Positions 81 to 9,106 are shown, numbered from the stretch's first letter. The stretch is 64,000 nt of DNA from Nitrospirales bacterium (GCA_965223615.1 CBDCXB010000002.1:114267-178266), one strand, 5' to 3'. Notes: generated from the sequence alone by a model not told the origin. Translations and numbers: made by a program.

Positions 81-361
81 TGGCCTTTGGGGACTTATTC
101 CTCAAAATGGGGGGTGACTCCTCTGCGCAGAAACTCTAAATTTCACCTTCTCTAAGGTACCGAGTAATTGGCAAAGGAATGTTTCCTTTCCGATTAAAAG
201 TTTCTCTCAAGCCAACTCACTTTCCTTTGTACCCGATTGAACCTTTTGCTCAAATGGTTCGACTCACATACAATGCAGCTGTTTGAACCTTTTACTTCAT
301 TTCCTTGATCGTCATGAACAAGTAGATGAATCCAATGACTTTCAGCCCCCAGGAGGTCTGT

Positions 362-1513
362 ATGGTACGTGATCAGATTCAGCAGTGTATGCTTTTTGTC
401 TTGGGTATTCTTGCTTGTTCGGCAGTTTCCATTGGGGCAACAGAACCTTCGGATTCTTTGAATATTTCTTTGAAGCGCCCCCTCCATTTTCTCACGGCTG
501 ATGGGAGCGATGTGTTACTTCACCCTGGAGGCTATCAGGTGATGGCAACCGAGGACTGGTTAAAGGTCATACCGGAGGATGGCGGGACCCATGATGCTAT
601 TCTCCTTGAGGCCACAGTCTCCAGTCATGACGAAGATGTGGAGTTTCCAGAGGCCTTGACCAATATTGGAGACACAGAAGATGTGGAATATGTTGCCTTA
701 CTTCTTCCCAGTGGACGATTGTTAGAGGCATTGGGAACGTCTAGCGGGATACGGCCTCGAGGGCTGAAATTCGGACGGGTGTCCCGCTATAAAACAAGAA
801 AAATATTTCGAAGAGCCAGGAGCTCGGCGCGACAGGGATTAACCCGTACCGAAAAGCCGTCTAGTTCCGGTGGGAGTCCTGGCCCTTCCTGTGGAAAAAC
901 CGAATCCAGATACAAGACTGCACCAACTTGTGTCTGTAAAGGGGGCGAGCATAAGTCTACCTGGACTAAAAAATTTAAACGCAAACACTTAAATTTTGAC
1001 GAACAATGTAAGATGGCCGCGAATGGGGCTAAATATTTTTGTTCGACCAAGGGGAAAGTCGTCGGATTTCAGTATAAGGTTTTGGAAAAGAAGTCTCAGA
1101 AAACGTCTAAAGGGAGTTATGAAGGCCATTGTAAAGTCAAATATCAATGCAGGTATCAAAAAATCAAACATTCTCGACTCATTAAAAAGGGGCAACCCTT
1201 TCCCCGGATCAAAAATGGAGAGGAAGGGGGGAATATGGGAAGTGTTAAGGTCATACGAAATGAATACCATACAGAATCCGTTGACCATGAAGCGTTGCTA
1301 AAACAAGCGTGTCTCAATGGCAAAAATAAAACGATTAAAGAACTGCTTGAGAAAAAGTTTGAAAAAGTCCGTTCGTTTGATCAGGAATTTCTTCGGAAAG
1401 AAAAAGCCGATTGGGATACCTATTATTGGCTGAAGTGTGTGTTTCGGTATAAATACACCTATTGGCCGGTGGCCCGAAAAGATACCGGTATTTATTGGTG
1501 TGAAAACCAATAA
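362..1513 (+). CDS. Secreted hypothetical protein: N-terminal domain ending in GIRPRG, then a Cys/Lys-rich C-terminal region
   Basis: ORF 326..1513; GGAGG RBS 6 nt before ATG 362. Signal peptide (MLFVLGILACSAVSIGA). Many Cys after residue ~190. The N-terminal block resembles, from recall, a domain shared by Nitrospira secreted proteins. Confidence 0.8.
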   Translation: MVRDQIQQCMLFVLGILACSAVSIGATEPSDSLNISLKRPLHFLTADGSDVLLHPGGYQVMATEDWLKVIPEDGGTHDAILLEATVSSHDEDVEFPEALTNIGDTEDVEYVALLLPSGRLLEALGTSSGIRPRGLKFGRVSRYKTRKIFRRARSSARQGLTRTEKPSSSGGSPGPSCGKTESRYKTAPTCVCKGGEHKSTWTKKFKRKHLNFDEQCKMAANGAKYFCSTKGKVVGFQYKVLEKKSQKTSKGSYEGHCKVKYQCRYQKIKHSRLIKKGQPFPRIKNGEEGGNMGSVKVIRNEYHTESVDHEALLKQACLNGKNKTIKELLEKKFEKVRSFDQEFLRKEKADWDTYYWLKCVFRYKYTYWPVARKDTGIYWCENQ

Positions 1514-2803: not shown

Positions 2804-3229
2804 TTAAAACTTACTGCTTTTGGTGTCAGGTCGGGTTTGGAGAGTCGGAGAAACCTTGTCCGCTTGAACCGACGGTCGAATTTGCAAGCTTGGGCGTTCA
2901 ACCTTCGGCGTTTTCACATCCGGCCGATTCTGCAATCCGGGGCGTTCAACTTTAGGTGTTTTGACATCGGGACGACTGTGCAGTCCAGGCTGTTCAACTT
3001 TTGGAGTCTTGACGGACGGTCTTTTGAGTGTTTGGTTGGATATTGCCGCCTTATTCGTTTCGGAAACCTGAATATCTTTCGATCCAGCCAAGACCTCACC
3101 CATATTGACGCCTATTGAGGCTCCAAGGGCCGCAACCATGGCCGCGAGTTTTTTTGCACGTAAAGCTGAATCATTGGGGGAAAGATTGTTGGAGTCACGA
3201 TCAGAGTGTTGAGGGGGATTTTTCATCAT
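2804..3229 (-). CDS. Repeat-containing peptide with a hydrophobic leader; candidate modified-peptide precursor
   Basis: AAGGAG RBS just upstream of ATGATG; hydrophobic KKLAAMVAALGASIGV segment; three 16-aa repeats plus a degenerate one; overlaps the stop of the upstream YkgJ gene by 29 nt. Confidence 0.8.
   Translation of the reverse strand: MMKNPPQHSDRDSNNLSPNDSALRAKKLAAMVAALGASIGVNMGEVLAGSKDIQVSETNKAAISNQTLKRPSVKTPKVEQPGLHSRPDVKTPKVERPGLQNRPDVKTPKVERPSLQIRPSVQADKVSPTLQTRPDTKSSKF
2828..3016 (-). repeat. Coding tandem repeat, 48-nt period (SVKTPKVEQPGLHSRP / DVKTPKVERPGLQNRP / DVKTPKVERPSLQIRP / SVQADKVSPTLQTRP)
   Basis: Visible in the translation; nucleotide divergence is mostly synonymous. 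Confidence 0.9.
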
Positions 3230-3977
3230 CGTCTCCTTTTTGTTGCTGGGTAATCCAGGCTTCCATTGCGGCTAAGTATACATTCAGTCGTTCAGGTAGA
3301 TCCACTGGTTCAGTCATTCCATGGGCCTGGCAATATTGAGCGACGACGATATCTAAATCCAACCATTCTCTTAGGGTTTGTTGAATCGATTCTTCGTCTC
3401 TCAAGTTGCATTTGGTCATTTCGAATGCCTTTTCATCGTTCTCCACGTCCTGCGCCAACATATCCAACATTCGATACACCAGAGTGAGATACCGATCTCG
3501 TACTTCAAGAAAAGGGAATAGGCCCTGTGCGTGTAGAAAATCTTCCACGGTGCCTTCCCGTCCATACACCCCTTCGGTTCTTGGGTGCGGCTTGGCGGGG
3601 TGGAATGATTCGACCCCCTCGCCAGTCACCCGTTGTTCTAAGGGATAAATGCGACAGACCAGAGGGCGATCGGCATGAACCCCGCATCCGTGTTCGGTGA
3701 GTAGAACACAAGCCCCATCCGATCGGTTGTCCAAATAGGGTTTGCCGGGCTCCAAATAGCTGGCAATAAACTGGGTTGTGGAAAGGCCTTTGTTGTGAGC
3801 CAGGCGGGCGACCTCATATGGATTGACCTGAATCTGTTTGTGGTAACAGCAGCGAGAACACCGATGGCAGGTGTAGGAAAAGGCACTTCCTCGTGTGAGT
3901 GGGGTTTCTTTTTGGGATGCCAAGAAAGAGGGGGGTAGCATGGGGATAACCGTACCAATTGAAAAGGAAGACTGCAA
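3201..3977 (-). CDS. YkgJ/FliB-like cysteine-cluster (CxxCxxCC) Fe-S protein
   Basis: YTCHRCSRCC...GACVLL...CGVHADRPLVCRIYP is the family signature; true start uncertain (ATG 3941 or further downstream). Confidence 0.85.
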   Translation of the reverse strand: MQSSFSIGTVIPMLPPSFLASQKETPLTRGSAFSYTCHRCSRCCYHKQIQVNPYEVARLAHNKGLSTTQFIASYLEPGKPYLDNRSDGACVLLTEHGCGVHADRPLVCRIYPLEQRVTGEGVESFHPAKPHPRTEGVYGREGTVEDFLHAQGLFPFLEVRDRYLTLVYRMLDMLAQDVENDEKAFEMTKCNLRDEESIQQTLREWLDLDIVVAQYCQAHGMTEPVDLPERLNVYLAAMEAWITQQQKGDDDEKSPSTL

Positions 3978-4413
3978 GCAGATCTATAGGTCAAAAGGAG
4001 GGTGTCCGGGAAGGAGCCTTTTGATGCTTCAAGGCAAGAATGTTTGCGGGGAATCAAATGGAAAGAAAATTCCTAATTTTTTATGTCAGCCCGGATACAA
4101 TGTTGATATGAACAATCCGGTAACGGAGCCCATTGCAGAAAGAAAGTGCTCCCCAAGGTTAAACCCATCTTGTGCCCGAATGTTACTTTTATGGGGAGAA
4201 GCATGGGAACGTTTCAACAAAGCCCGATCCGGAACAGATATTTGTCGGGGACGGTTAACCGTGGCCGGAGTAAAGAATACGACCGATGATGCTCCTCTGA
4301 AATGTCCGTCTGGCTATTCCTATACACGAAATTACAGGGGACAACCGGATCGATGTGGCAAGCCAGGGAGATGGATTTTTAACGCACCTCCCTTACAATT
4401 CAATAGTAATTAA
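3895..4413 (+). pseudogene. Possible C-terminal fragment of a Cys-rich secreted protein
   Basis: 8 Cys with CQPGY/CPSGY motifs; no signal peptide; its ATG (3940) overlaps the ATG of the divergent YkgJ ORF, leaving no promoter space. Confidence 0.35.
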
Positions 4414-4650: not shown

Positions 4651-6015
4651 TTATTGTTCAATGACGATAGTTTCAAGAAGGGCGGTTAAATTGGGTGCAT
4701 GCTCAAATGACCAAAGAAGGCCTAAAGCTTGAGCACACTGTTCCTTTGGCAATACCTGTCGGGCCAATGAACGAAATTTATTTTCTATCTCGATATCAGA
4801 GAGGGTATGCCCAGGGAAACCTTTGGGGTAGACCAAAGAAGTGGATAAAATCTCTCCAGAATTTGCAGTAACTTTCATATGGCAGTTGTATTCCTTGGCG
4901 AAACGTTGAGTAAAGGCAAAATCTTCATCTACATGTATTTTTTTGATCAGGGAGATCGTTCCTGAATCGGTCAGGGCTTCCTCACTGAAGCTTTTAGGTG
5001 TTATTTTCCCATGGTGAAAAGCGGTGGCGACTAAATAGGGAATGCTATGATCCGCCGTTTCCCGATTTTTGGGTTCCCATTTTTCTAATTCTGTTGCTGC
5101 GCTGGATACGGCTTTTCCATATGTTCGGATGTGAATGGAGGCGATGTCAGGGATTTGAATCTGTGGGCGTAGCTCTAGAGCGAGTGAGATTGGGCCTTGA
5201 GTATGAGTTTGGCAGGGATAAAGCTTGAAAATATTCGACATGATTCGGAAGCCTTCAGTATTATGAGAGAACGGTGTGATCGTCACGGTTTTTCCCAAGG
5301 TTTTTTCCATCAAGCCGTGTGTTCCCTCAAAAGGAGCGTTGGGCCCGGTCAATCCCAACTCCGCTAATTGAGCCATCACGATGGCCGTGCGTGATGAATT
5401 GGCTGCCGCACACCCTTTCCACATAGATAGTTCCCCCGTTCGTGTTACCCCAAGAGGTAAATTCGAAACCATGGCTAGAGAAATGGCATGTCCGAGAGTC
5501 TGATGATTAAGTCCCAGAATTTTTCCAACTCCACAAACAGCTCCGATGACACTGAGGGTGCCATGATCCCATCCCAGGTCTCCAATGGGTATTTGATCCG
5601 ACAGACGACAAAATATTTCATAGGCAAGCACAATTGCAGTGATTGTTGTCTGTCCATCGCAATCCATGGCGTCGGACATGGCTAGTATTGCGGAAAGCAT
5701 ATCGCTAGGATGTCCACCACTGGGTGATGCATAGGCATCGTTGTAATCCAGATAACGAGCCATGCAACCATTGGCGAAGGCCGTCATCTCAGGTGAACTG
5801 GTACTTTGCATACCCCAAATTCTAGAGCTTTTACGGCATTTCAGCCCTTGAGCCCACTTTTTAGCTATATGAGAAGGAGGGGAATGGAATCCTCCAAGTG
5901 CACACCCTAGAGTGTCTATGAGTATTCGCTTGGTCTGGTGTACAACCTCAGGGGGGAGATGGTTATAGGTAAGGCTGCGGGTATAGACGCTAAGCAATTC
6001 AGTGGTTCGGTCCAT
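4651..6015 (-). CDS. prpD: MmgE/PrpD family protein (2-methylcitrate dehydratase-like)
   Basis: TKRILIDTLGCALG, RYLDYND, GGHPSD, KLYPCQTH and YPKGFPGH motifs; 454 aa. Confidence 0.85.
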   Translation of the reverse strand: MDRTTELLSVYTRSLTYNHLPPEVVHQTKRILIDTLGCALGGFHSPPSHIAKKWAQGLKCRKSSRIWGMQSTSSPEMTAFANGCMARYLDYNDAYASPSGGHPSDMLSAILAMSDAMDCDGQTTITAIVLAYEIFCRLSDQIPIGDLGWDHGTLSVIGAVCGVGKILGLNHQTLGHAISLAMVSNLPLGVTRTGELSMWKGCAAANSSRTAIVMAQLAELGLTGPNAPFEGTHGLMEKTLGKTVTITPFSHNTEGFRIMSNIFKLYPCQTHTQGPISLALELRPQIQIPDIASIHIRTYGKAVSSAATELEKWEPKNRETADHSIPYLVATAFHHGKITPKSFSEEALTDSGTISLIKKIHVDEDFAFTQRFAKEYNCHMKVTANSGEILSTSLVYPKGFPGHTLSDIEIENKFRSLARQVLPKEQCAQALGLLWSFEHAPNLTALLETIVIEQ

Positions 6016-6219
6016 GAGGAATCTCTTGGTCGTATTAACTTTTTTATCTCAGGTTCCTATATTCTAGGCCGAAAAAACAGTATATGCTAGGAGTATAAAA
6101 TGAGATATGCCGGTAGGATGTCTAAAAACTTTCTATAGCTCACCTTGATGAATAAACAATATCGATGAAATAATATATTTGATGATGCCTTGTCTGGCTA
6201 ATACTTTTATGTGTTCTGA

Positions 6220-8100
6220 TTGAATGTGCATAGTTTCACTACTCGAAAACCCCCTATGCCCGAACATGGCCTTTCAACGGAAACTTTCCAGCCTTTTGCT
6301 CGATCAGAACTCGAAAAATCTCTGACCGAACGATTCCAGCATCAAGTCAATCAATTCCCAAATCGATTGGCAATCGGACATTCAACTGGCGATTTGACCT
6401 ACGATGAGTTAAATCGAAAAGCCAATGTTGTGGCCAGGAAAGTACTGGAGCGAGTGCTCCCGGGTACAAGGCCTGTTGCCCTTCTTTTCCATTCTGACAC
6501 TGATATGATTGTGGCCTTGCTTGGGGTTCTCAAAGCCGGGCATTTCAGTGTTCCATTGGACCCGTCCCATCCGGCTGGAAGAAATGCGATGATTGTGCAG
6601 GAAGTTCAGCCGGATTTACTCCTCACTAATCATCAAGGAGCAGAGCATTCAGAGGCTCTCGCCCTTCATGTCACCAATATTTTAAATATAGAAGAAATAC
6701 CCAATGGCACCAATGAGACCAATCTTGATGGTCCCAATTTGCCAAGGTCTCTGGCTTTTGTGTTGTTTACCTCAGGGACAACCGGGGCTCCAAAAGGTGT
6801 CGTGATCACCCATCAACTCCTTATGCATTTAGTCATGTACCATACGAATACCCGACAAATTTGTTCAGATGACCGGTTTTCTTCTTTAACACGATGTCAT
6901 CATATTGGTGGGATCGCCGATGTTTTTCGGGCCTTGCTAAATGGCGCAGGGTTGTTTCCCTATGATTTGCGAATTCAAACCGTTGGTGAGTTGATCGAAT
7001 GGCTTATCGATAGGCATATTACGATACTTCACTGTGTGCCTACCATTTTCCGTATGCTAATGGATCAACTTCCGTCAGGTGAACTCCTGCCCTCTTTACG
7101 CCTGATTCACCTTGGGGGGGAACCTGTGACCAAACGAGATGTTGAGCTTTACCAAGAACGTTTTTCGGGCCATTGCCTGTTGGTGAATAACTTTGGTTCT
7201 TCAGAAACCGGGCCGTTGGGTCAGTACTTCGTCACGAAAAACACAAAGTTATCCCATACGATCGTCCCAATCCATTTGAAAGTCGAGGACAAGGAAATAT
7301 TCCTGGTGAACCGGACTCCTTTACCAGATGGCCAAGGAGAGGTTGGGGAGATTGCCGTGAGAAGTCAATATTTGTCTCCGGGGTATTGGGAAAAATCCGA
7401 TAATGACCCAGTCGAGAGATTTGTCGATAAGCGAAACCGCTTCAGAACTTTCCTTACGGGTGACTTAGGTCAGATGGGACCCGATGGGCTCATTCTATAT
7501 AAAGGACGTAAGGATCACCAAGTGAATCTTCGAGGCTTTCGAGTGGATCTGATTGAAGTGGAAGCCAGGATTCGCAATATTACCGACTGCAAGGATGTCG
7601 CGGTGGTTGCCGGAGTATCTGTCGAAGAGGAGGTGCAGCTTGTTGCCTATTTGGTCTCAAAACAAGATATTGAACCAGAGGTAACCGTCCTTCGGAAACG
7701 ACTGTCAGATATATTACCTGGGTACATGATACCGGAGGAATTCTATTTTCTAGATCAATTTCCCAGAACTGCGACGGGCAAAGTTGACCGTCAAGCCCTT
7801 TCCGTCGAATACCAAGATCGTAAAAACCCACCCATTGAGTGTGTCGCTCCACAAAATGAACTGGAGGAAGGGCTTGTGCAATTATGGAAAGATCTGTTGA
7901 ATGTGCCTTCCCTAGGTACTCGGAATAAATTTATAGATTTAGGAGGAAACTCTCTTATTGCCACAAGATTGTCTAATCGAATCGAAGGTTGGTTGGGAAT
8001 TCGATTAACCATTGGGGACATTTTGGCTCATCCGACGATTGAAGAATTATCCCAATACATTCTTGATCGAGAGCCTAGTTCGCCCATTGTTGATGACTGA
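6220..8100 (+). CDS. Stand-alone NRPS-like adenylation + carrier (A-PCP) didomain protein
   Basis: A3 FTSGTTGAPKG, A5 NNFGSSET, A7 TGDLG, A8 GRKDHQVNLRGFRVDL, A10 PRTATGKVDR; PCP motif FIDLGGNSL. No C or TE domain. Alternative start ATG 6256. Confidence 0.93.
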   Translation: MNVHSFTTRKPPMPEHGLSTETFQPFARSELEKSLTERFQHQVNQFPNRLAIGHSTGDLTYDELNRKANVVARKVLERVLPGTRPVALLFHSDTDMIVALLGVLKAGHFSVPLDPSHPAGRNAMIVQEVQPDLLLTNHQGAEHSEALALHVTNILNIEEIPNGTNETNLDGPNLPRSLAFVLFTSGTTGAPKGVVITHQLLMHLVMYHTNTRQICSDDRFSSLTRCHHIGGIADVFRALLNGAGLFPYDLRIQTVGELIEWLIDRHITILHCVPTIFRMLMDQLPSGELLPSLRLIHLGGEPVTKRDVELYQERFSGHCLLVNNFGSSETGPLGQYFVTKNTKLSHTIVPIHLKVEDKEIFLVNRTPLPDGQGEVGEIAVRSQYLSPGYWEKSDNDPVERFVDKRNRFRTFLTGDLGQMGPDGLILYKGRKDHQVNLRGFRVDLIEVEARIRNITDCKDVAVVAGVSVEEEVQLVAYLVSKQDIEPEVTVLRKRLSDILPGYMIPEEFYFLDQFPRTATGKVDRQALSVEYQDRKNPPIECVAPQNELEEGLVQLWKDLLNVPSLGTRNKFIDLGGNSLIATRLSNRIEGWLGIRLTIGDILAHPTIEELSQYILDREPSSPIVDD

Positions 8101-8155
8101 GAATTGAGTGTGAAGATGAAGGATAGATGAGGTTCCCATTTGAAGGACGCATGAA

Positions 8156-9106
8156 GTGAATCAACTCTTCTCTACTCTCACTGACACCTATCTGGAGATT
8201 CCTGAAGCCGTTTCGGTTCTCCTCGCGAATTTTAAGGAAGATCTCTTTAAGCGGAGGTCACGTCTCTACGTCCCTTTAATTTGTGAAGAATTCCTTCAGA
8301 CGATTTCCTCGACGATTGTCGATGGGCTGATCTTTGACTTGGAAGATAGTGTACCTCCTCACCAAAAGGAGTTGGCAAGATATAACATTACTAAGATTCC
8401 ACCAAAAACAAAAGGGGTTGAACATATCCTTAGAATCAATGCCTATCAATCTGGACTTTGGAAAAAGGATTTGGAATTCCTTGATCAATACCCATTTGAT
8501 ACAGTCATGATACCCAAAGTGGAAGCTGCACAGCATGTTGAAATTATTTCTGAGCACTTCCCCACTTCTGGTGTAAGAAAAGTCGTCCTGATTGAAACCA
8601 TTCATGGAATTTGGAATCTTCGTGAAATTGCCAGAACCTTAGGGGAGGGTGATGCGATGGGCTATGGGGCAGGAGATCTGTCCACCACGTTCGGCGTGGC
8701 CCGTGAACCGATCCATGAGTCGTTGATCCTTCAACGCATACTCATGGAGGTACTCATGGCCGCCAAATATGTGGGGGTCGATGTGTTTGATCCTCCATTT
8801 CGAAACTTTTCCGATATGTCGACTTTAGAGAAAGAAGCCCAATTTGGTCGTAAATGTGGAACGATAGGGAAGCAAGCGGTGCACCCTTCGCAATTAGAAA
8901 TCATCAATCGCATATACTCCCCTACAAAGTCCGAGATTGAACAATTCGTCAGAGAATTGGATGGGTTTGCCCATCAAAAGGATCGACAAGCTATAAAAAT
9001 TGATAGAACGTATAAAGGCAAACCATCTAAAGTTCTGGCCGAACAAAAGTTGAAAGATTATGTCAGAAGAGGCTACATTAAGCTGCTTTCTCCAACCAAA
9101 ATTTAA
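8156..9106 (+). CDS. HpcH/HpaI aldolase / citrate lyase beta (CitE-like) family protein
   Basis: RRSRLYVP, DGLIFDLEDSV, RINA, VMIPKVE, LIET and GKQAVHPSQ motifs. Confidence 0.9.
   Translation: MNQLFSTLTDTYLEIPEAVSVLLANFKEDLFKRRSRLYVPLICEEFLQTISSTIVDGLIFDLEDSVPPHQKELARYNITKIPPKTKGVEHILRINAYQSGLWKKDLEFLDQYPFDTVMIPKVEAAQHVEIISEHFPTSGVRKVVLIETIHGIWNLREIARTLGEGDAMGYGAGDLSTTFGVAREPIHESLILQRILMEVLMAAKYVGVDVFDPPFRNFSDMSTLEKEAQFGRKCGTIGKQAVHPSQLEIINRIYSPTKSEIEQFVRELDGFAHQKDRQAIKIDRTYKGKPSKVLAEQKLKDYVRRGYIKLLSPTKI

Follow-up and report, generated by a model that had tools for sequence, protein, structure and literature searches.

What does a small cysteine-cluster enzyme do with a short repeat protein whose gene begins inside its own? 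The question is raised by two overlapping genes in a 64,000-nucleotide stretch of DNA from a Nitrospirales bacterium (GCA_965223615.1, CBDCXB010000002.1:114267-178266), here called the window, from whose first letter all window positions are counted. Both genes, with all the features described for them below, lie on the minus strand; they are tightly coupled and their reading frames overlap. The first (3201-3941) was identified from its open reading frame (ORF) and translation and equals the gene-call P0008. It encodes a YkgJ/PF03692-type cysteine-cluster enzyme of 246 amino acids when read from its ATG start; the mechanical ORF begins earlier, at TTG 3977, and the stop codon is TGA 3201-3203. 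The second (2804-3229) encodes a partner of 140 or 141 amino acids, the predicted substrate, recognised by its ORF, its orthologues (P0002-P0007) and its adjacency to the enzyme gene. It has two candidate starts, ATG 3229 and ATG 3226, giving overlaps with the enzyme gene of 29 nt and 26 nt, respectively, and it stops at 2804-2806. Its Shine-Dalgarno sequence, AAGGAGA, can be read directly at 3232-3238, inside the coding end of the enzyme, and by this arrangement the partner gene is translationally coupled to the enzyme gene. An earlier note on this DNA had described the overlap with a 141-residue gene and the ribosome-binding site within the enzyme's end, and the coordinates bear this out. 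The answer proposed here, on which we are evenly divided, is that the pair forms a two-gene enzyme-substrate module in which a cytoplasmic iron-sulfur enzyme would modify the repeat lysines of its partner before export.

The pair is conserved far beyond its genus. Enzyme homologues were scanned in one genome per species; the best 80 of 237 loci were kept and three metagenome loci were added, giving the 83 loci that underlie all pair counts. The partner was searched for across them with a profile of its leader, which is about 30 residues long. The profile matches 70 of the 83 enzyme loci, always on the enzyme's strand, and yields no match (0) on the opposite strand. One further locus, L051, carries a frameshifted partner copy, which brings the total to 71 of 83. 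In a six-frame translation of the 4.18-Mb genome from which the window comes, the profile matches the window partner gene only. The adjacency is therefore not due to chance. Paired loci occur in Nitrospirota, Pseudomonadota (alpha, beta, gamma and zeta), Thermodesulfobacteriota, Chlorobiota, Verrucomicrobiota, Methylomirabilota and Myxococcota, about ten phyla altogether, and enzyme homologues with 40-50% identity are found far outside Nitrospirota. The names carried by homologues assign the window to an uncultured genus of Nitrospirales. Within this genus the enzyme is present in 4 of 25 genomes, and each of the four has a small ORF with leader and repeats that abuts or overlaps the 3' end of the enzyme gene. 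The earlier note had named consistent adjacency of such an ORF as its own check, and the 71 loci answer it positively.

The partner is nearly always directly downstream, with the leader motif beginning a median of 35 nt past the enzyme's stop codon. In three loci (L052, L077, L081) the order is reversed and the partner lies immediately upstream, so the linkage survives rearrangement. In four others (L021, L035, L039, L076) two tandem partner genes stand behind a single enzyme gene; three of these loci are beta-proteobacterial (Burkholderiales-type) and one belongs to Caulobacterales. Clustering of all flanking ORFs recovered no other gene conserved with the pair across phyla, only lineage-specific synteny; specifically, no protease, ATP-binding cassette (ABC) exporter, RiPP recognition element (RRE; RiPP, ribosomally synthesised and post-translationally modified peptide), methyltransferase or immunity gene accompanies it. 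The same clustering returned a group of antisense ORFs inside the enzyme gene, which was dismissed as an artefact. Given the adjacency, the lack of any further conserved gene and the single leader gene in the window's own genome, the unit is a specific one-enzyme/one-partner pair. No description of it was found in the literature searched, and the proteins matched by the partner profile are annotated as 'hypothetical', apart from one mislabelled 'FtsB' and two whose source names could not be read.

Such a pair need not consist of an enzyme and its substrate. The small protein could instead be a membrane-anchored or exported tether, a regulator or a scaffold of an iron-sulfur protein that acts elsewhere, or the two could merely share an operon. 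Its hydrophobic segment has a small-xxx-small (GxxxG-like) face, typical of membrane helix packing, the flagellin-modifying enzyme FliB is membrane-associated (PMC8598068), and 12 of the 83 enzyme loci have no partner. However, paired loci are found all over a maximum-likelihood tree of the enzymes, and the unpaired state needs about eight scattered changes; partner loss is thus scattered and the pairing looks ancestral, as far as the sequences tell. A tether or scaffold would also leave unexplained why a variable tail keeps one invariant Lys in each repeat, why linkage persists despite changed gene order, and why the partner is duplicated beside a single enzyme gene. We consider this explanation improbable.

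The enzyme-substrate reading draws on the structure of the partner itself. In the window the partner carries the leader KKLAAMVAALGASIGV. The leader's polar, net-basic n-region (residues 1-26, 3149-3226, read from the sequence) ends in RAKK and is followed by a hydrophobic core and c-region, LAAMVAALGASIGVNMGEVLA (3086-3148), with a predicted signal-peptidase site VLA/GS. The latter segment is marked out by cross-phylum conservation and as the sole helix predicted by AlphaFold2. Behind it stand four tandem repeats of 16, 16, 16 and 15 residues (2828-3016), delimited with Tandem Repeats Finder and by their coordinates: SVKTPKVEQPGLHSRP (2969-3016), DVKTPKVERPGLQNRP (2921-2968), DVKTPKVERPSLQIRP (2873-2920) and the degenerate SVQADKVSPTLQTRP (2828-2872). 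Each ends in RP and carries one invariant Lys (in TPK or ADK). Tandem Repeats Finder reports a 48-nt period with 2.5 copies and a score of 133 at 2895-3013. The C-terminal tail, DTKSSKF (2807-2827), is kept in close orthologues as RPDTKxSKF. The hydrophobic leader and the three to four tandem units ending in RP that the earlier note described are therefore present. In the AlphaFold2 model of the partner only an N-terminal helix (residues 17-46) is formed; the repeats lack secondary structure and have a low predicted local distance difference test score (pLDDT), so that the tail is modelled as disordered. No Pfam or NCBIfam family matched the partner. Extensin_1 and PspC matches in Pfam lie far below their cut-offs and were rejected as reflecting Pro/Lys-rich composition only.

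Orthologous small proteins have one to four repeats. The two lysines of VKTPK behave differently among the orthologues of the window protein: the second never changes, while at the first R, S, Q and other residues are found instead. Since the neighbouring basic site varies, it appears to be the amine itself that matters and not mere positive charge. Across the wider family the leader is conserved between phyla, but the sequence, period and predicted structural type of the repeats differ by lineage. In addition to the Pro-rich 16-residue units of the window there are FPKVERPGTA decamers (Desulfurivibrio) and units of 7-9 residues built on SNQIKL, ANQHKV, ATQQKL or SKQGKF; in Syntrophales and Geobacter the repeat region consists of long heptad/coiled-coil-like arrays in proteins of 180-230 residues. 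One Lys per repeat unit is the constant, usually within [S/A]xQxK and in the window within TPKVE. Mature partner parts contain 12.4% Lys versus 4.5% Arg. Gln occupies position -2 of 46% of lysines (4.2-fold enriched), Ser or Ala is found at -4 in 50%, and position +1 tends to be hydrophobic, with L, V and F together accounting for about 30% and each enriched 2.2- to 3.6-fold. Cys is almost absent. Gln is absent from the FPKVE-type repeats (L041), which leaves Lys as the sole universal repeat residue; Gln as the universal modified residue was ruled out by these same FPKVERPGTA repeats.

The earlier note had proposed the lysines of KTPK as the targets. Part of this stands: Lys is the only universal repeat residue, and the two characterised relatives of the enzyme, FliB and DpdM, both N-methylate primary amines. 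The other part has to be narrowed, as only the second Lys of KTPK is invariant. A modification pair with a lysine target is plausible. We lean modestly towards the partner being the substrate of the enzyme, and regard it as an even question whether the repeat Lys is the residue modified.

The leader of the partner has the layout of an export signal. All 49 aligned partners (49/49) show a basic n-region, mostly with a positive net charge, a hydrophobic core and a c-region whose -3 and -1 residues are small. The consensus of the core, LAxAAxVAxLGxSLGV, is conserved across phyla, and 7-8 residues beyond it comes a (V/L)x(A) site, with A, G or S as the next residue. In 9 of the 49 a twin arginine directly precedes the core. 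The signal-peptide assignment is based on this sequence pattern and on family context. In addition, the partner in L026 ends in a C-terminal PEP-CTERM signal (PF07589, 30.6 bits against a cut-off of 20.7; TIGR02595, 22.4 against 16). PEP-CTERM signals are found on exported proteins that are processed by exosortases. This protein (L026 3196-3837), from a groundwater Nitrospirota genome, combines the leader and QxK repeats with an extra beta-rich region before its PEP-CTERM end. Its sequence ties the partner family, at least in one lineage, to surface display that depends on an exosortase. Export of the partner is supported by the n-h-c layout and its AxA-type site, by the PEP-CTERM signal in L026, by the twin arginine in some members and by the single N-terminal helix that AlphaFold2 predicts for the window protein; the predicted signal is of Sec type in the window and Tat-like in some lineages. 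A double-glycine leader served by a peptidase-containing ABC transporter, which the VLAGS sequence might suggest, was rejected: there is no transporter, and the -3/-1 signal-peptidase rule fits across the family. The leader is hydrophobic and conserved, as the earlier note had stated; what it looks like, however, is a Sec/Tat export signal with an AxA-type cleavage site, carried in one homologue together with PEP-CTERM.

The nature of the leader bears on the interpretation given in that note, a classical multi-core RiPP in which each 16-residue unit would be modified, cut out and released as a separate bioactive peptide. A precursor with a conserved leader and variable repeats stands beside a candidate modifying enzyme in 70 of 83 loci, which is a RiPP hallmark; the repeat number varies from one to four among close relatives, and some loci have tandem double precursor genes. 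Against this, no dedicated leader protease, exporter or recognisable RRE domain was found with the pair, nor is a protease, transporter or immunity gene conserved with it. The leader has the make-up of a general export signal, including a site of the signal-peptidase type. The repeats have no conserved flanking cleavage motif across lineages, and in Syntrophales and Geobacter the whole region reads as one long heptad/coiled-coil-like protein of 180-230 residues. Finally, one homologue is PEP-CTERM anchored and therefore kept as a protein. Release of the repeats as units is accordingly hard to uphold, given that no protease or transporter is conserved and that repeat sequence, period and predicted structural type vary, and we judge the multi-core explanation quite improbable. 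An exported, modified repeat protein fits the sequences better. Two known systems offer partial parallels. Bufferins are RiPP precursors with Sec signal peptides, whose Cys residues are acted on by enzymes of the MNIO (DUF692) family; like the partner they would combine an N-terminal export signal with a ribosomal product that is modified first, but no PF03692 enzyme is involved. Mycobacterial HBHA is an exported protein with a Lys-rich disordered repeat tail that becomes methylated. It resembles the partner in having Lys-rich disordered repeats as the candidate sites on an exported protein and differs in its unrelated enzymology, which again lacks a PF03692 enzyme.

The enzyme matches PF03692 (CxxCxxCC, YkgJ/UPF0153) with 46.6 bits against a gathering cut-off of 23 (E=5.6e-12), and the match was confirmed on the genome. 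It belongs to a distinct subfamily of PF03692 proteins about 235 residues long, and all subfamily-invariant residues are found in it. In a library of 1.84 billion proteins this subfamily has 225 representatives at E<=1e-30, and the wider PF03692 family 4410 at E<=0.001. In sets of 19 and 71 homologues, conservation is complete or at least 90% for eight Cys residues (C25, C28, C31, C32, C78, C86, C96 and C204), and likewise for H89, H119, a DRPLVCR motif and a WLDxD motif. The first four Cys form the CxxCxxCC motif (3846-3869), the putative [4Fe-4S] ligands and the equivalent of the FliB motif, which is invariant or nearly so in the 71 homologues. Given the eight conserved Cys residues, the enzyme is probably a [4Fe-4S] protein. 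Without a signal peptide and with a globular predicted fold, it reads from its sequence as cytoplasmic. In the AlphaFold2 model (pLDDT 83.4) a small alpha/beta core rich in Cys precedes a C-terminal domain made of helices. This domain (residues 132-239, 3225-3548; helices assigned by DSSP on the model) is specific to the subfamily and contains the WLDxD motif, with W193, D195 and D197 conserved, and C204. It has no match in Pfam or in the PDB, and in the model it is a candidate for the part that docks the substrate or its leader. No PqqD/RRE domain was found in the enzyme by Pfam or Foldseek.

Some members of the family occur in other settings. In two proteins of the representative library, P0320 (718 residues) and P0321 (599 residues), the subfamily domain (E about 1e-45) is joined to a long additional C-terminal region. 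That of P0320 matches PF00501, the family of AMP-binding enzymes, with 46 bits, a hint from sequence that some relatives of the enzyme act with adenylate-forming activity. The window's own genome also encodes a second, unrelated PF03692 paralogue of 206 residues (contig C4 206796-207065; L090 1447-2067). It lies in another gene context and has no leader-plus-repeat partner.

What chemistry the enzyme would perform can be approached through its characterised relatives. FliB of Salmonella enterica is a flagellin lysine N-methyltransferase that depends on S-adenosylmethionine (SAM); it has eight conserved Cys and an oxygen-sensitive [4Fe-4S] cluster held by an N-terminal CX4CX3CC motif, which its authors likened to PF03692, and it works in the cytosol, ahead of the export of its substrate (PMC8598068). 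The window enzyme shares with FliB an N-terminal Cys-rich motif within a set of eight conserved Cys, a gene adjoining that of the substrate and, as proposed for the window pair, cytoplasmic action on many lysines of a protein that is later exported; dependence on an iron-sulfur cluster and SAM has been demonstrated for FliB alone. The two differ in spacing and length (CX4CX3CC and an NCBIfam model of 373 positions in FliB, CX2CX2CC and 246 residues in the window enzyme). They also differ in substrate. FliB methylates folded flagellin, which leaves through flagellar type III export and has no consensus around its lysines, whereas the window enzyme is paired with a dedicated small disordered repeat protein that has a Sec/Tat-type signal and a short motif around Lys. 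The comparison was made through the NCBIfam model NF038110 (cut-off 85 bits), which matched neither the window enzyme nor any other protein of its genome; the best orthologue reached 13 bits. The earlier note had counted FliB as a member of the enzyme's family. This must be withdrawn: FliB family membership of the enzyme was rejected on the score, the CX2CX2CC spacing, the length (246 residues against about 370-400) and the lack of a flagellin neighbour.

DpdM (DUF3109) of Vibrio and Cellulophaga phages is reported to be a YkgJ homologue; it N-methylates the aminomethyl group of preQ1 in DNA (bioRxiv 10.1101/2023.04.13.536721). The amine that it modifies is primary (-CH2-NH2) and chemically like the epsilon-amine of lysine. 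The substrate, however, is a base in DNA and not a protein, and DpdM belongs to a different Pfam family. The window enzyme does not match DUF3109, as Pfam returns only PF03692 at E<=0.1, and tblastn against 50,697 phage records gave four weak, unannotated matches and no annotated DpdM. The YkgJ/YcgN proteins (PF03692/UPF0153) share the domain and cysteine pattern with the enzyme, which gives marginal matches to YcgN models; the window subfamily differs from them by its additional helical C-terminal domain of about 110 residues and its fixed partner gene.

By analogy with FliB and DpdM, methylation is our tentative assignment for the modification. Chemistry of another kind on the same substrate is the alternative, directed at Lys or at Gln and Lys, e.g. 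3-amino-3-carboxypropyl transfer, hydroxylation or a radical cross-link. FliB converts SAM to methylthioadenosine and its authors proposed a route through a 3-amino-3-carboxypropyl radical (PMC8598068). The strong enrichment of Q at -2 and of S/A at -4 of Lys suggests a defined site, and nearly all of the 4410 PF03692 representatives are of unknown function. Yet both characterised relatives end in N-methylation, Q is missing from some repeat types (L041), and the substrates have no Cys or other cross-link partners. We rate such chemistry as unlikely.

Under the enzyme-substrate reading, the enzyme would bind the partner in the cytoplasm, soon after synthesis, through the partner's conserved leader and modify the epsilon-amino groups of the repeat lysines, most likely by the SAM-dependent N-methylation that FliB performs on flagellin Lys and DpdM on the preQ1 amine. 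The modified partner would then be exported and its signal cleaved after VLA, leaving a periplasmic or surface-exposed, lysine-modified polycationic repeat protein. The core of the export signal would double as the docking and recognition element, and from its conservation it is a probable enzyme-recognition element. Leader docking would explain why the signal peptide is the most conserved part of the partner. The same reading would explain why the tail is free to change in sequence, period and predicted structure as long as the Lys motif of each unit is kept, and why rearrangement and duplication of the partner have not broken up the pair. If flagellin and HBHA are a guide, the modification may tune the charge, hydrophobicity and protease resistance of a polycationic protein of the envelope or the extracellular space.

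Several results weigh against this reading. Conserved adjacency alone also fits other kinds of partnership, and the partner is missing from the 12 loci mentioned above. The likeness to FliB is marginal and does not extend beyond the Cys motif: the best E-value is 0.029, only 5 of 71 homologues match, and one orthologue scores 13 bits. No SAM-binding motif is known or detectable in the enzyme, and the metal that it binds could be Zn. A Foldseek search of the enzyme model against the PDB returned nothing below E=0.75 and a profile search of PDB sequences nothing relevant, and hence no solved structure was found that resembles the model. The hydrophobic segment of the partner could also be an uncleaved membrane anchor.

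The genes within about 4 kb of the pair include secreted Cys-rich proteins and a PrpD-like gene; flagellin is not among them. The plus strand encodes, at 1696-2658, a 320-residue protein rich in Cys, whose N-terminus resembles a signal sequence and which contains an HExxH motif (LLHELYHAQQ). Its eCIS_core/DUF4157 match is below threshold (E=0.0046, 17.5 bits against a cut-off of 22), and a close homologue occupies the equivalent convergent position beside the pair in a genome of the same genus (L004 77-1036). The gene at 326-1513 (plus strand) belongs to a secreted family with further members at L002 13-1341 and L006 971-2350 and 2419-3897. These share an N-terminal domain of about 85-135 residues (39% identity over 135 and 84 aligned residues; E=3e-26 and 4e-13), but their C-terminal parts are unrelated, and members flank the enzyme-partner pair in several Nitrospirales genomes. 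This pattern suggests a polymorphic secreted family.

On the other side of the pair, a Cys-rich ORF of 172 residues (3895-4413, plus strand) is a candidate gene, unmatched in Pfam and NCBIfam, that runs divergently from the enzyme gene, whose first codons it overlaps on the opposite strand. Farther away, at 4651-9106, a minus-strand gene of the MmgE/PrpD family points away from two ORFs, one stand-alone and adenylation-plus-carrier-like (6220-8100), the other of 316 residues (8156-9106). These genes are probably a small separate biosynthetic cluster and are not conserved with the pair.

Bacteria and archaea commonly encode PF03692/YkgJ proteins, and an activity has been assigned only for FliB and, more remotely, for DpdM. 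The subfamily described here brings its own candidate substrate, which is short, Cys-free and disordered and has one target-like Lys per repeat, and the chemistry of the enzyme therefore becomes testable. On the sequence evidence, the pair is probably a previously undescribed protein-modification system. A broader claim is more doubtful: that it founds a new and widespread class of leader-guided modification, in which the conserved core of an export signal would serve a YkgJ-type Fe-S/SAM enzyme as its leader, and one Lys per repeat would be decorated before Sec/Tat export. This would give PF03692 its first defined substrate and motif ([S/A]xQxK or PKVE) and suggest amine N-alkylation as the chemistry of the family. 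If the proposal is true, the pair would be a new Fe-S-dependent protein-lysine modification system outside flagella, in which an export signal doubles as the recognition leader of the enzyme. It would also add to the biology of nitrite oxidisers, sulfate and iron reducers, syntrophs, green sulfur bacteria and iron oxidisers a modified polycationic protein of a new type, located in the envelope or outside the cell.

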